Positions 1-41,251 of a stretch of DNA of 64,000 bases are shown in pieces. The stretch is from Actinomycetota bacterium (GTDB lineage Bacteria > Actinomycetota > CADDZG01 > JAHWKV01), in contig DASTUJ010000138.1 in assembly GCA_035759705.1 (NCBI GenBank), forward strand, positions 87 through 64,086. The letters are read 5' to 3'. The position numbers and the translations under genes were made by a program. The notes under the pieces were generated by a model. That model had not been told where the DNA came from, ran no database searches, and worked only from the letters and a program-made list of their open reading frames with translations. Every line of letters begins with the position of its first letter. Within the stretch, counting starts at the first letter, position 1.

Positions 1-7
1 TGGGAGC

Positions 8-1033
8 ATGGTTGACGTGTCAGCGACCATCTCGCCGGAAGCGCCGGAGACCTTCCCCGGGCCGGCCCGCCCTGCGATCGAGATCAGGGGACTGCGGAAG
101 GTCTACGGCGAGCTGGAGGCGGTGAAGGGCATCAACCTCGAGGTGCCCGCCGGCGAGATCTTCGGATTCCTCGGGCCCAATGGCGCCGGCAAGTCCACCA
201 CCATCAAGATACTCTGCACGCTCGTCCGCCCGACCTCGGGCGACGCCCTGGTGGCCGGCTACAACGTGGTCGAGGAGCGGACCGAGGTTCGGCGGCACAT
301 CGGGCTGGTCTTCCAGGAGCCCACCCTGGACGAGTACCTGACGGCCGAGCAGAACCTCAGGTTCCACGCCGAGATCTACGGCATCCCCCGGGCGGCGGTG
401 GCGTCGCGCCTGGAGTCGGTACTCAACATGGTCGGCCTGGCCGACCGCCGCAAGGACAAGGTCTCCACGTTCTCGGGCGGGCTCAAGCGCCGGCTCGAGA
501 TCGGCCGGGGCCTGCTGCACTCCCCGAGGGTGCTGTTTCTCGACGAGCCGACCATCGGTCTCGACCCGCAGTCCCGGGTGACTCTGTGGAAGTACGTCGA
601 CCAGCTGAGGGTCCAGGAGAGCATCACCGTCTTCCTCACCACCCATTACATGGACGAGGCGGAGCGCTGCGACCGGATTGCGATCATCGACCGGGGCGAG
701 ATCGTCGTCCTCGGGTCGCCGGCCGGCCTGAAGGCTAGCGTCGGCCAGGATCGGATCCGTATCCGGACCGCCGACGACACCGCAGCCGCCGAGACAATCA
801 TCACCGGCCTGGGGGTAAAGGCGATAGCCACCAAGGACGGGGTGGACGTGTTCACCGACGACGGTGAGGGTTTTGTGCCCCGGATCTTCGAGCTGGGCCT
901 CTCGGTGCAATCGGTCACGGTGACCAAGCCGACGCTGGACGACGTCTTCCTGGCCTACACCGGCAACCGGATCGACGACGCACCCGTGTCGGGCGGCATG
1001 CCCCCCGGGCCCTGGTCGAGGAAGCGCTCGTGA
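8..1033 (+). CDS. ABC transporter ATP-binding protein (DrrA-like, ABC-2 exporter family)
   Basis: Walker A GPNGAGKST, ABC signature LSGGLKRRL and Walker B LFLDEPT are all present. The 4-nt overlap with the downstream permease indicates an operon. Confidence 0.9.
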   Translation: MVDVSATISPEAPETFPGPARPAIEIRGLRKVYGELEAVKGINLEVPAGEIFGFLGPNGAGKSTTIKILCTLVRPTSGDALVAGYNVVEERTEVRRHIGLVFQEPTLDEYLTAEQNLRFHAEIYGIPRAAVASRLESVLNMVGLADRRKDKVSTFSGGLKRRLEIGRGLLHSPRVLFLDEPTIGLDPQSRVTLWKYVDQLRVQESITVFLTTHYMDEAERCDRIAIIDRGEIVVLGSPAGLKASVGQDRIRIRTADDTAAAETIITGLGVKAIATKDGVDVFTDDGEGFVPRIFELGLSVQSVTVTKPTLDDVFLAYTGNRIDDAPVSGGMPPGPWSRKRS

Positions 1034-1942: not shown

Positions 1943-3400
1943 GTGGACCTGGTAACCGGCTTCGGCCTCATCGGTGTGACCGTGATCGTGTCCGGCCTGG
2001 TGGCCGGATTGGTCGACCGGGGGCCGGTATCGTTCCCGATGATCTTTCTCGGGCTGGGCCTGGCGCTCGGGGCTGCCGGCGTGCTGGACGTGGGTGTGCA
2101 CGACCCGTCGCTGGAGGTCGTCGCCGCGCTCACCCTGTCCCTGGTCCTGTTCATGGATGCCTTCAGCCTGGAGGGCGGCGGGTCGCGCAAGGACTGGCTT
2201 GTCCCGGCGCTGGTCCTCGGCCCCGGCACGGCGCTTGTGATCCTGGTGGTCGCCGGGTCGGCCATCCTGCTGTTCGACGTGCGGCCGATCTCCGCTTTCA
2301 TCCTGGGGGCGGTTCTCTCCTCCACCGACGCGGTGGTTCTCAGAGATGTCGTCCGGGACGACCGGGTGCCGCGGCCGGTGAGGCGGGTCCTGTCGGTGGA
2401 GGCGGGGACCAACGACATCATCGTCCTGCCCCTCCTGCTCGTCCTGATCGCAGTGGCCGGGGGCGACGCTTCCGGCAACGGCGCCGGAGACTGGGCGCTG
2501 TTCGGCCTGAAGATCTTTGTCATAGGACCCGCCGTGGGCGCTGCGGTGGGCGCGGTCGGCGCCTGGCTGATGGCACGAGCCGACGCCCGGCACTCGGTCC
2601 GGCGCGAGTACCAGGCGCTCTACGGCGTCGGCCTCGTTTTGAGCTCATATGCCGCCGCGGTCGCGGTCGGGGGCGACGGCTTTTTGGCTGCGTTCTTTGC
2701 CGGCCTGGCGATCACGGCCCTCGACCAGACCTTGTGCGACTGCTTCCTGGAGTTCGGCGATGCTGCGGCGGAGATTTCGATGCTGTTGACGTTCGTCCTG
2801 TTTGGCGCCCTGCTCTCGACCGAGCTGGGTTCGGTCCCGCTGGTGAGCGGCCTGGCCCTCGCCGCTATCGTGATCTTCGTGGCCCGGCCGCTCGCCATCG
2901 AACTGGTGCTCAGCGTGCGGCAGGCCGCTCTCAGCCGGGCTGCCCGGGCGTTCATCGCCTGGTTCGGCCCCCGGGGCCTCAACTCCCTGCTTTTCGCTCT
3001 GCTCGTAGTGGCAGGCGAGGTGCCGGAGGGCGAGTTCCTCCTGGCGGTGACCGGCATGGTGGTCCTGGTGTCGGTTGTGGGGCACGGCGCCAGCGCGACG
3101 CCGGTGTCCTCCTGGTACGGCCGCAAGGTTGCAGCGGAGGTGCTGGCGGAGGAGCGCTTCGGCACCGCCACCGGCCTGTTCGAGCAGAAGGAGCAGACCT
3201 CCGACCGCATCAGCCCGGCCCGCCTGGCCGAGATGATGGAGAGCGACGACTCCCCGCTCGTGGTGGATGTCCGAACCCGATCGCAGCATGACCGCGATGC
3301 GGTGAAGATCCCCGGCAGCATCCGGGTTCTGCCCGACTCGATCCCCGAGTGGGTCTCCGACCAGCTGAAGGACCGGCCCTACGTCCTGTACTGCACCTGA
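1943..3400 (+). CDS. CPA1-family Na+(K+)/H+ antiporter fused to a C-terminal rhodanese-like domain, which is interrupted by an in-frame TGA
   Basis: The N-terminal ~400 aa are multi-TM with an NhaP/CPA1-like GAVLSSTDAV motif. The C-terminus (SPLVVDVRTRSQHDRDAVKIPGSIRVLP...YVLYCT) is a rhodanese fold that stops at TGA 3398-3400, inside the active-site loop. Confidence 0.75.
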   Translation: MDLVTGFGLIGVTVIVSGLVAGLVDRGPVSFPMIFLGLGLALGAAGVLDVGVHDPSLEVVAALTLSLVLFMDAFSLEGGGSRKDWLVPALVLGPGTALVILVVAGSAILLFDVRPISAFILGAVLSSTDAVVLRDVVRDDRVPRPVRRVLSVEAGTNDIIVLPLLLVLIAVAGGDASGNGAGDWALFGLKIFVIGPAVGAAVGAVGAWLMARADARHSVRREYQALYGVGLVLSSYAAAVAVGGDGFLAAFFAGLAITALDQTLCDCFLEFGDAAAEISMLLTFVLFGALLSTELGSVPLVSGLALAAIVIFVARPLAIELVLSVRQAALSRAARAFIAWFGPRGLNSLLFALLVVAGEVPEGEFLLAVTGMVVLVSVVGHGASATPVSSWYGRKVAAEVLAEERFGTATGLFEQKEQTSDRISPARLAEMMESDDSPLVVDVRTRSQHDRDAVKIPGSIRVLPDSIPEWVSDQLKDRPYVLYCT

Positions 3401-3538
3401 CCGAGCGAGGCCACCAGCGCCCGTGCGGCGCAACACATGAAGTCGAAGGGGTTCAGCCGGGTGTGGGCCCTGGAGGGAGGCCTCGACGCGTGGAGGGCCG
3501 GCTTCCCGGTGGAGGAGATGGTCACGCCGTCTGTCTAG
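3401..3538 (+). other. In-frame continuation of the rhodanese domain after TGA (PSEATSARAAQHMKSKGFSRVWALEGGLDAWRAGFPVEE...). It is either a readthrough or selenocysteine extension, or a pseudogenised tail
   Basis: The 45 codons after the TGA stay in frame and encode the conserved rhodanese C-terminal helix/strand (K.GF..V..L.GG...W..G.PV), ending at TAG 3536-3538. Confidence 0.5.
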
Positions 3539-5055
3539 AACTGGTCCCGGAGGGTCACCAGCTGGTCGACCGGGGCGTAGTCGTCGGTCAGCACCCGGGC
3601 TTTGCCCATGAACGACTTATACCGATCGCCCTCGATCAGGGTGAACTCCGGCGCCCGAGCGGCCAGCTCGGCCCGGATCGCCTCCACCGGCAGGGGGCTT
3701 TCCGACCCGACCATCACGAGGTTGTCGCCGCTACGGCCGGCGGCGACGTCGGGCCGGGTGATCAGGGCGACGTGCGGGAACACCTCCGCGATCGTCGCCG
3801 CCTCGGCCCGGGCGAACAGAAGGGGCGCAAAGTCGATGACGTTCACCAGGTAGATGCCGTCCGGGCGCAGGATGCGGCGGATCTGTTGGGCGGTCTCGAC
3901 CGTCGTCAGGTGCCAGGGCACCGCCAGCCCGCCGAAGGCGTCCTCCACGACGACGTCGCGGCTGGCGTCGGCCTGGTCTCTGAGAGCCACCCGGCCGTCA
4001 CCCACGTGCGCCTCGATGCCGTCGCCCAACTTCAGGCCGAGGCTCTTGACATCCAGGTCGACCACCCCCTGGTCGATCTCCAGCACCAGGTTGTCGGATC
4101 CGGGCCGGGTGAAGTCGAGGTACCTGGGGATGCTGAACCCACCGCCGCCGATGTGAAGCGCATCTATCGGCTTCTCCGGCTTGGCTGCATCGATCACCGC
4201 GGCAAATGAGCGGGTGTAGGAGAACTCCAGGTAGGAGGGGTCCTCGATGTCCACGTAGGAGTGAAAGAGCGTGTCCATGCGCAGCGTCCGTCCCGAGGGC
4301 CGGGTCGGGTCCACGACCACCTTGGCGCAGTGGTACGCCGTCTCCACGTCACACGGCGGAGGGAAGAACGACGAAGCACCGACTCCGGCCGCGGCGAACA
4401 GCAAAAGCCCGTAGGCCGCACGGTTGGCCCGCAGCTTGACTGTCAATATCAGCCCGAGCACGATCAGCGTGCCCCCCAGGGCCAGCAGGATGCGGCTCGT
4501 GGGCAGCTCGGCGACCAGCAGGAAGCCGGTGGCGAAGGTTGCCACCAGTGCCCCTAGCGTGCCGACTCCCGAAAGTCGCCCGACCACCCGGCCGGTCTCG
4601 TCCAGAGCCTGCAGCCGCAGCTTTACGACCAGCGGAGTGACCGCCGCCAGCAGGGCGGCCGGGGCGAGGATGGACACCGCCGCCATTACCAGAACCGAGG
4701 TGGCGTTGCCTCCCCGGACCTGCTCGCCGGTGAACCGCACTGCGGGCCCAACGAACAACACCAGGATGCCGGCCAGCAGGATCATCGGGCCCAGCAGCTT
4801 TTGTGGAGGCACCGCGTCGGCAGCGCGTCCGCCCAACCACGCGCCGAGGGCAATGGCGCCGAGGGCGAAGCCGATGACCCCGGTGCTCATCTCCAGCGTG
4901 AGCCCCAGGTAGGGCGCCACCAGGCGAAGGCTGAGGATCTCGAGCATGAGGATCGCCCCCGAGGTGATGAAGACCAGCCACCCCGCAGCGGCGGCGTTCA
5001 GCCCGGGGGCATCAACCGGCGTTGGTGCAGGCTCTTGCGGCGCGTCGTTATCCAA
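3535..5055 (-). CDS. speE: Membrane-anchored spermidine/spermine synthase-like aminopropyltransferase
   Basis: The N-terminal ~220 aa are polytopic. The C-terminal domain has the spermidine-synthase fold motifs (DALHIGGGGFSIPRYL, VVEDAFGGLAVPWHLTT, LRPDGIYLVNVID). Confidence 0.8.
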   Translation of the reverse strand: MDNDAPQEPAPTPVDAPGLNAAAAGWLVFITSGAILMLEILSLRLVAPYLGLTLEMSTGVIGFALGAIALGAWLGGRAADAVPPQKLLGPMILLAGILVLFVGPAVRFTGEQVRGGNATSVLVMAAVSILAPAALLAAVTPLVVKLRLQALDETGRVVGRLSGVGTLGALVATFATGFLLVAELPTSRILLALGGTLIVLGLILTVKLRANRAAYGLLLFAAAGVGASSFFPPPCDVETAYHCAKVVVDPTRPSGRTLRMDTLFHSYVDIEDPSYLEFSYTRSFAAVIDAAKPEKPIDALHIGGGGFSIPRYLDFTRPGSDNLVLEIDQGVVDLDVKSLGLKLGDGIEAHVGDGRVALRDQADASRDVVVEDAFGGLAVPWHLTTVETAQQIRRILRPDGIYLVNVIDFAPLLFARAEAATIAEVFPHVALITRPDVAAGRSGDNLVMVGSESPLPVEAIRAELAARAPEFTLIEGDRYKSFMGKARVLTDDYAPVDQLVTLRDQF

Positions 5056-40459: not shown

Positions 40460-41251
40460 TCATAGTGGTCCCGAAATTCCGCCGTCCTTGCGGACTCGCC
40501 AGAAGTGCACGGCCATCAGCAGCGTGATGACAAACGGCAGTGCAAGCACGTGCAGCGTGTACCAGCGGATCAGAGTCCCGGCACCGATCTGAACGCCTCC
40601 GAGAAGGATGAACGAGACCTCTTTACCAACCAGCGGCGACTCGTAACCCATCTGTGTGCCGACGGTGACCGCCCAGATCGCCAGCTGGTCCCAGGGCAGC
40701 AGGTAGCCGGTAAAGGCCAGGAGCAGTGTGAGGAGCAGCAGAACGACTCCGATGACCCAGTTGAACTCCCGCGGCGGCTTGTAGGAGCCGGTGTAGAAGA
40801 CCCGGGACATGTGCAGGAAGACGGTGACGACCATCAGGTGGGCGCTCCAGCGGTGCATGTTTCTCACCAGCTGGCCGAACGCCACCGAGGTTGCCAGCCC
40901 GACCATGTCGGTGTAGACGACCTCGGTCGAGGGCCGGTAGAAGAACATCAGGAAGATTCCGGTGATCGTCAGGAAGATGAACAGGAAGAAGGAAAGGCCG
41001 CCCAGACACAAGGTGTACGAGAGCTTGATTCCGTGCCGCTTCACCTTCACCGGGTGGAGGTGGTACAGGACGGAGTTCATGATCACGTAAGCGCGGTTAC
41101 GTGGGGAGTCCTGGTATCCCTTCGTCAGGACCGATCCGGGCCTGAAGATGGAACGCCAAACCTGGCCGCCTCTCAGGCCGTCCCAAGCACCCTTTGCCAG
41201 AGCGCCCGGGTGGCGCAGGCCACCAAGCTTTTCTTTCAGATTTGCCGCCAA
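40460..41251 (-). CDS. qcrB: Cytochrome b6-like (split cytochrome b N-terminal half)
   Basis: Four-helix haem-binding core with conserved His pairs ([33 protein letters not shown]). At 263 aa it has b6 length rather than that of a fused cytochrome b. Confidence 0.9.

Follow-up and report, generated by a model that had tools for sequence, protein, structure and literature searches.

The 64,000-nucleotide stretch of DNA analysed here (hereafter the window; positions 87 to 64,086 of contig DASTUJ010000138.1, assembly GCA_035759705.1) comes from an Actinomycetota bacterium and carries near its start an open reading frame (ORF 1943-3400, plus strand) for a cation/proton antiporter followed by half of a rhodanese domain, which stops at a TGA (3398-3400) directly after the peptide DRPYVLYCT. 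The 45 in-frame codons that follow this TGA (PSEATSARAAQHMKSKGFSRVWALEGGLDAWRAGFPVEEMVTPSV) lead to a TAG at 3536-3538 and complete the rhodanese domain. We consider it highly probable, from comparative sequence analysis, that the TGA is the selenocysteine (Sec) codon of a genuine selenoprotein gene; the same comparisons support that UGA is decoded and that a hairpin with the geometry of a selenocysteine insertion sequence (SECIS) is selected wherever the TGA is kept. An initial annotation of the window, made from the sequence alone, had preferred this interpretation of a Sec codon and a SECIS-like hairpin within a rhodanese domain, and it is upheld by orthologues that carry either TGA or Cys at this codon, by purifying selection on the downstream frame, by a constraint on the synonymous sites of the hairpin that is seen only in the TGA forms and by a match to the L-Y-C-x-U motif of the selenoprotein family NF041203. 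The features of the gene are as follows.

1943..3538, plus strand: whole gene, a 531-codon NhaP-type antiporter-rhodanese predicted selenoprotein (GTG start, UGA as codon 486, TAG at 3536-3538)
2012..3109, plus strand: cation/proton antiporter membrane domain (CPA1, NhaP-like), residues 24-389 (Pfam PF00999, 110 bits)
3212..3499, plus strand: C-terminal rhodanese domain, residues 424-519, with the UGA inside (Pfam PF00581, 49.6 bits; best NCBIfam match NF041203)
3392..3394, plus strand: Cys484 (TGC), first residue of the C-x-U motif and probable canonical rhodanese active-site Cys (GlpE alignments and structural model)
3398..3400, plus strand: UGA codon 486, proposed selenocysteine (TGA or Cys in homologues, never TAA or TAG)
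3401..3535, plus strand: 45 codons translated only with UGA decoding, second half of the rhodanese fold, with GGLDAW at 3476-3493 (in-frame conservation)
3417..3431, plus strand: SECIS-like hairpin, stem GCGCC (3417-3421) and GGCGC (3427-3431), loop CGUGC (3422-3426) (RNAalifold, synonymous constraint)

The interrupted gene and the conservation of its TGA codon

Domain searches were made with the read-through protein, in which Cys was substituted at the TGA position. Pfam PF00581 (Rhodanese) matches this protein over residues 424-519 with 49.6 bits against a gathering threshold of 22.2, covering positions 1-101 of a profile of 102 and spanning the TGA, as expected from the initial description of a C-T-TGA-P context with 45 further codons completing a rhodanese; since the profile is complete only across the TGA, this codon cuts the domain in half. 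At the other end of the gene, GGAGG sits 8-9 nt 5' of the GTG start at 1943, and the start residue is shared with orthologues of 484-490 aa. In a six-frame scan of the window, the TGA at 3398 is the sole one with coding-type GC content at the third and second codon positions on both sides. TGA is the ordinary terminator of many other ORFs of the window, which excludes a reassigned genetic code.

The initial annotation had proposed to check orthologues for Cys versus TGA at this codon. We compared DNA sequences from one genome per GTDB species, plus metagenome contigs, and found that the codon aligned with TGA 3398 is TGA in 60 species-representative genomes, TGC in seven, AGC in one and deleted in one. 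A metagenome contig (L001) also has TGA at the position of codon 486, and five further Cys forms (TGC or TGT) from metagenome contigs bring the Cys homologues to 12 in all (L018, L032, L039, L048, L051, L055, L069 and L082-L086). The TGA forms span six phyla, namely Actinomycetota, Chloroflexota (Ktedonobacterales, Chloroflexia, Dehalococcoidia and Sphaerobacteraceae), Acidobacteriota/Thermoanaerobaculia, Planctomycetota, Candidatus Dormiibacterota and, represented by a metagenome-assembled genome (MAG), Alphaproteobacteria. No TAA or TAG was found at the internal stop codon in the 60 genomes and L001. The terminal stops of 55 TGA-form genes are TGA in 28, TAG in 20 and TAA in seven, so that the chance of the internal stop being always TGA is (28/55)^55 = 7e-17.

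A search with the read-through protein gave 2,992 matches. Orthologues of 82-84% identity are encoded in the MAGs JAUJPC01, JAJCYE01 and DATAAN01. About 108 of the best 120 clusters (from JGI, ENA, Logan and NCBI), with identities from 92% to ~54-58%, have 484-490 residues and a C-terminal ...YCT, and eight clusters among these 120 are full-length (529-555 residues) and have YC[TAGS]CP[DNH][ED].. at the site. The contig L001 (553 bp, from an ENA metagenome) is a relative with 89% identity, reads YCA-TGA-PSEATSARAAQHMKSKGF... and differs at synonymous sites downstream. At positions 41-553 of this contig, which has 1.4x coverage, the Sec-rhodanese is in frame with an N-terminus that resembles by eye an FtsX/MacB-type permease; either the assembly of L001 is chimeric or the Sec-rhodanese module exists in a further fusion architecture.

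Among eight Actinomycetota sequences, the differences at codon positions 1/2/3 number 191/200/409 in the 37 codons after the TGA and 169/126/434 in the 37 codons before it. The divergence after the TGA is thus dominated by third positions, which indicates that the downstream frame is translated and under purifying selection. This frame is conserved in all TGA forms; the initial annotation had named a lack of such conservation in relatives as grounds for abandoning the Sec interpretation, and the opposite was found.

The same annotation had left room for a recent nonsense mutation or a sequencing error, and one may more generally suppose a pseudogene or a base-calling error, in which case the gene would merely be disrupted at 3398. 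Both gene callers and public annotations do stop there (the NCBI "cation:proton antiporter" entries P0020, P0029, P0031, P0074 and P0099 have 485-487 aa), and none of the Sec machinery turned up in the window, which would also suit a broken gene. However, the same TGA recurs in 60 independent genomes of six phyla and in a metagenome contig with synonymous differences, purifying selection acts on the downstream frame, only TGA occurs as the internal stop, and a shared systematic artefact is implausible for sources as independent as NCBI, ENA, JGI and Logan. The conservation of the TGA across 60 genomes refutes a nonsense mutation or sequencing error, and we give a broken gene a negligible chance. 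The ~108 of the 120 closest clusters that are cut at the TGA, NCBI "cation:proton antiporter" entries included, thus represent a widespread gene that is systematically mis-annotated.

The codon for the upstream Cys (position of Cys484) is present in all 55 tabulated TGA forms (TGC in 52, TGT in three), and YC[TA]U is kept in nearly all TGA forms; an exception is L035 (11420), which retains the TGA and the hairpin and has Tyr in place of the upstream Cys (YYA-TGA). Two Acidobacteriota loci have lost the motif: a two-residue deletion in L034 (~11440) takes out both Cys and Sec (AYDMDDATS), and L045 (11450) has Ser (AGC) at the Sec position. These losses imply that the rhodanese redox centre is dispensable in some lineages. 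Separately, L027 (~11390) has an extra in-frame stop upstream (LPD*ILEW) and is possibly a pseudogene or an assembly error.

The hairpin downstream of the TGA

A GC-rich hairpin, GCGCC-CGTGC-GGCGC, is present at 3417-3431 with a free energy of -9.4 kcal/mol. It had been placed initially about 21 nt downstream of the TGA; this figure is the distance to the loop, and the stem begins after 16 nt. In an ungapped alignment of the 51 nt following the TGA in 55 TGA forms, the sequence AGCGCC-CGKGB-GGCGC is nearly invariant, synonymous sites included, and its motif with the true spacing from the TGA can be written as TGA N15 AGCGCCCGKGNGGCGC. The stem codons +6, +7, +9 and +10 have a third-position entropy of 0.26, 0, 0 and 0 bits, against 0.85-1.68 bits at the remaining downstream codons. 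The Ser codon at the hairpin is AGC in 51 of the 55 forms, the Ala codon at +7 is always GCC or GTC and that at +10 always GCG, and the loop Arg codon is CGT in 43, CGG in 12 and never CGC, despite the GC-rich genomes. RNAalifold returns the hairpin as the only consensus structure (-8.97 kcal/mol), with 99.6% of the cells of the alignment paired in the stem.

These values can be compared with the model of the bacterial SECIS (bSECIS), which asks for an apical loop of 3-9 nt, an upper stem of 4-16 bp, a G in the first two loop positions, a distance of 16-37 nt from the UGA to the loop and a minimum free energy of -7.5 kcal/mol or lower (PMC13188914, Fig. 2). The hairpin of the window agrees with this model on every count (loop of 5 nt, stem of 5 bp, G at loop position 2, spacing of 21 nt, -9.4 kcal/mol).

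Where the TGA is absent, the hairpin is generally absent too. In ten non-TGA forms with Cys or Ser, the hairpin sequence is lost in all ten, S[VGI][RKQH] replaces SAR, and nine keep two to four of the five stem pairs; the tenth, L055, keeps all five with a different sequence. Three Dehalococcoidia Cys (TGC) forms still have SAR, namely L018 (11447), L032 (11378) and L069 (11447): the stem is intact in L018 and partly disrupted in L032 and L069, and the Arg codon is CGC in all three, so that the U/G of the loop is lost. Their appearance is that of recent conversions from Sec to Cys in which a "fossil" SECIS is decaying, and this suggests that function depends on the U/G at loop position 3.

A hairpin-stimulated, programmed read-through or suppression of the UGA by a near-cognate tRNA would also yield the full-length protein, with a standard residue (Trp, Cys or Arg) and no selenium. 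Sequence comparison does not reveal the identity of the inserted residue, the hairpin has a short stem and the Sec machinery of the genome is only presumed, all of which leaves some room for such a process. On the other side, the codon aligns with Cys in the non-TGA homologues, which is the classical Sec/Cys signature, the hairpin fits the geometry of a SelB-type bSECIS and its rule of G[U/G] in the loop, and the curated family closest to the domain is one of selenoproteins that share its motif. Near-cognate read-through is moreover inefficient and an unlikely source of an active-site residue conserved across six phyla. We regard the insertion of a standard residue as very unlikely.

The hairpin motif is matched exactly once more in the window (GCGCCCGGGTGGCGC), at 41202-41216 on the plus strand, against 0.02 matches expected by chance. 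This second copy was rejected as a Sec element: it is antisense to a cytochrome b-like ORF of the minus strand (40460-41251), in the 5' portion of that ORF, no TGA stands at the right distance from it on either strand, and it appears unrelated to Sec decoding.

The rhodanese domain and its active-site loop

The best NCBIfam match of the rhodanese part is NF041203, "rhodanese_LYCAU, rhodanese-related (seleno)protein" (E = 8e-27, positions 15-125 of a profile of 126), and the L-Y-C-x-U motif of this family is present in the window protein as L-Y-C-T-U. This type of CxU rhodanese has been described as the "form 3" rhodanese-like domain selenoprotein, with TKB26178.1 as an example (PMC13188914), and named "COG0607 form 2" elsewhere (PMC9312934). 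The LYCxU Sec-rhodanese domain is therefore known, and what is new is its fusion to a CPA1 antiporter.

The TGA had been placed in the initial annotation exactly at the catalytic Cys position of GlpE-type rhodaneses, and this is probably off by two residues. Alignments by phmmer to 1gmx (GlpE) and 2hhg put the upstream Cys on the catalytic Cys (Cys65 of GlpE) and make U-P a two-residue insertion, and hhalign, run with the family profile against a GlpE sequence, likewise puts the upstream Cys on Cys65, with the same insertion; an ungapped phmmer alignment to 6mxv is the sole one with the TGA codon on the catalytic Cys. An AlphaFold model was made of the Cys-form homologue P0114 (pLDDT 86.8, pTM 0.81). 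There the strand ends at Y482 and is followed by the loop C483-G-C485-P-H-E and then by a helix, the upstream Cys being the first loop residue, and the active-site loop is two residues longer than that of GlpE (compared with the six-residue loop of rhodaneses). The homologues themselves give opposite pointers to the catalytic residue: L035 has the TGA with Tyr for the first Cys, whereas P0006, P0007 and L045 keep the first Cys and have Glu or Ser at the Sec position. Cys484 is thus probably at the canonical catalytic position, and Sec486 probably two residues into an enlarged loop.

The rhodanese module is also found by itself. By eye, the stand-alone YCTCP.. relatives P0003-5 and P0008 seem to have a hydrophobic helix at the N-terminus and P0009 shows several hydrophobic segments, and the YCTCP-type rhodanese subtype seems to be generally membrane-tethered. 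A single metagenome scan, with a pattern whose spacer was 1 nt short, retrieved nine JGI/ENA contigs (L087-L095) that have frequent 1-nt homopolymer deletions and broken frames; they carry stand-alone LYCT-TGA-PNEATSARVA rhodanese genes with the same GCGCCCGUGUGGCGC hairpin. Use of the hairpin in a second reading frame was rejected, since the TSARVA... continuation lies in the adjacent frame on these contigs, which identifies the shift as a sequencing artefact. The most parsimonious history has a Sec-rhodanese module, already containing its SECIS, fusing to an antiporter.

Probable selenocysteine decoding, the antiporter and related systems

Several results weigh against the assignment of the TGA as a Sec codon or against the role that we propose below for its product. 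Neither a tRNA-Sec nor selA, selB or selD was found in the window by ARAGORN, Rfam and tblastn; Rfam at gathering thresholds returned nothing in the window and, in seven related loci, no RNA other than ordinary tRNAs; a tRNA-Sec was likewise missing from the ARAGORN results for 60 related loci, and tblastn, with E. coli SelA, SelB and SelD sequences serving only as probes, gave no SelA/B/D match in any Actinomycetota locus. The hairpin, with its 5 bp, is short beside the E. coli fdhF element. No stem pair has changed on both sides in the 55 TGA forms, that is, there is no compensatory covariation; the stem changes are five, all one-sided, and four of them keep a G.U pair. The stem being simply invariant, the evidence for the hairpin is the synonymous-site constraint, and the absent covariation is uninformative rather than contradictory. 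The 76 nt at 3395-3470 fold with no greater stability than their shuffles (z = +1.33), and it is only the local 15-nt hairpin that is meaningful, not the global 76-nt fold. The score for NF041203 (93.4 bits for the full protein, 94.5 for the domain alone) does not reach the curated cutoff of 115, which is why this selenoprotein model overlooks the antiporter-rhodanese fusion gene. As to the role of the product, clustering of the neighbourhoods of 60 loci gave no gene neighbour conserved across phyla, and hence no clue to function from the context, and the antiporter-rhodanese gene thus acts as a self-contained unit; the sensor role that we infer for the Cys-x-Sec rhodanese comes from domain architecture only.

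In related loci, tblastn matched sequences of SelA type only, at the ends of three loci (L059, L022 and L025) and in L084; the three end matches are the sole, indirect trace in favour of Sec machinery. In L059, from a Chloroflexia MAG, the 5' end of a selA-like gene (1-270, minus strand; PF03841, 50.7 bits) stands ~10 kb upstream of the antiporter-rhodanese gene, and similar matches were obtained in Ktedonobacterales MAGs (L022, 1-345, and L025, 3-206, both on the minus strand). These three fragments are cut by the end of the locus and have 36-37% identity to the N-terminal region of E. coli SelA. In L084, a 395-residue pyridoxal-phosphate enzyme of the SelA family (108-1295; PF03841, 44 bits) is encoded ~1.7 kb upstream of a Cys-form antiporter-rhodanese gene. 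This protein is shorter than the E. coli SelA probe (~460 residues); it is therefore probably a SelA-like paralogue rather than a Sec synthase, and we did not count it as Sec machinery.

The membrane part of the protein matches Pfam PF00999 (Na_H_Exchanger) over residues 24-389 with 110 bits against a gathering threshold of 26.2. It contains the ion-binding motifs T128-D129 (2324-2329) and N157-D158 (2411-2416), whose assignment to particular helices is presumed from what is known of PaNhaP, and the arginine of a WFGPRG peptide (2960-2980); the peptide EAGTNDII is one of the best conserved in the antiporter-rhodanese family. No specific K+/H+ or Na+/H+ equivalog was reached by the window protein (NF003716 and NF003715, 139 bits against cutoffs of 355 and 309; TIGR00831, 33.5 bits against 279.6). 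By Foldseek, the P0114 model superposes on PaNhaP and MjNhaP1 with a TM-score of 0.72-0.77, and structures of KefC, SOS1 and SLC9C1 also turn up in the fold search.

We propose that the 15-nt hairpin at 3417-3431 would recruit SelB carrying Sec-tRNA(Sec) during translation, and that the ribosome would insert Sec at residue 486 and continue to the TAG at 3536. The predicted product would be a 531-residue NhaP-type (CPA1) antiporter with a complete C-terminal rhodanese domain, in which Cys484-Thr-Sec486 would lie in the enlarged active-site loop. The most likely role of the Cys/Sec pair would be that of a fast-reacting redox, persulfide or electrophile-sensitive centre regulating the fused antiporter, possibly through a reversible selenenylsulfide or a Se/S-sulfane adduct, and such regulation would parallel that by C-terminal sensor domains such as the KTN domain of KefC and the cyclic-nucleotide-binding domains of SLC9C1. 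That an antiporter carries a fused domain with costly Sec speaks for a chemically active rhodanese module and against a dead regulatory fold.

Insertion of Sec in bacteria is incomplete and competes with termination. The UGA might on these grounds act mainly as a selenium-dependent switch between a 485-residue antiporter with a crippled rhodanese and a full-length regulated form, both functional, and the truncated product would indeed keep the whole membrane domain. Cys forms of the same protein nevertheless exist without any switch, which argues that the full-length protein is the functional unit; we hold it very unlikely that switching is the main purpose of the UGA. As a supplement to a Sec codon serving the full-length protein, rather than a replacement for it, a selenium-dependent production of two isoforms is possible.

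The words antiporter and exchanger are absent from the selenoproteome reviews (PMC13188914, PMC9312934), NhaP is also absent from the 2026 review, and among the papers of the library searched we found none pairing "rhodanese" with "NhaP", nor any relevant to selenoprotein together with "proton antiporter". A wider proposal can be put forward, which we regard as tentative and, taken as a whole, rather doubtful: the gene may encode the first selenoprotein among CPA-type antiporters, with the Cys-x-Sec rhodanese as an ultra-reactive sensor of redox state, persulfides or electrophiles gating K+/Na+-H+ exchange, and may constitute a selenium-based counterpart of KefC gating across Actinomycetota, Chloroflexota and Acidobacteriota, in which the UGA would make the full-length form dependent on selenium. 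With the Sec assignment, a membrane ion transporter would join the short list of predicted transporter selenoproteins, and Sec decoding would be implied for numerous uncultured lineages that are represented by MAGs alone, those of Actinomycetota, Chloroflexota and Acidobacteriota among them. The gene would also offer a directly testable way in which redox or sulfane-sulfur chemistry could be tied to the homeostasis of cytoplasmic pH and of cations, and the nearly invariant 15-nt hairpin would be a compact natural SECIS and a candidate for recoding work.

The product of the downstream gene that converges on the antiporter-rhodanese gene (3538-5055, minus strand) has 506 residues and matches no Pfam family at E <= 0.001; its N-terminal half is hydrophobic, and by eye its C-terminal half is reminiscent of a methyltransferase fold like that of spermidine synthase. 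Synteny between this gene and the antiporter gene is confined to the closest Actinomycetota relatives (L002-L006).

Compared with known systems, the decoding signal resembles the SECIS of E. coli fdhF and fdnG in that the hairpin lies directly 3' of the UGA inside the coding sequence and presents G then U/G in its apical loop ~20 nt from the UGA. By contrast, the hairpin of the window is much shorter (5 bp), neither a lower stem nor a bulged U having been detected, and instead of covarying it has hardly changed in sequence from phylum to phylum. The rhodanese domain has the same fold and the same L-Y-C-x-U active-site motif as NF041203 (rhodanese_LYCAU), but the latter models a stand-alone protein of ~126 residues whereas the domain of the window is the C-terminal module of a membrane antiporter of ~420 residues. 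The membrane part shares PF00999, the fold, the TD and ND motifs and the conserved Arg with the NhaP-type CPA1 antiporters (PaNhaP, 4cz8/4cz9; MjNhaP1, 4czb), archaeal proteins that have neither a C-terminal rhodanese domain nor selenocysteine. Finally, the combination of a CPA membrane domain with a responsive cytoplasmic domain is also that of KefC (KTN domain, glutathione adducts, 8by2) and of SLC9C1 and SOS1 (cyclic-nucleotide-binding domains); unlike these, the window protein would, in a hypothetical gating mechanism, sense through a rhodanese with Cys-x-Sec and not through a KTN or a cyclic-nucleotide-binding domain.

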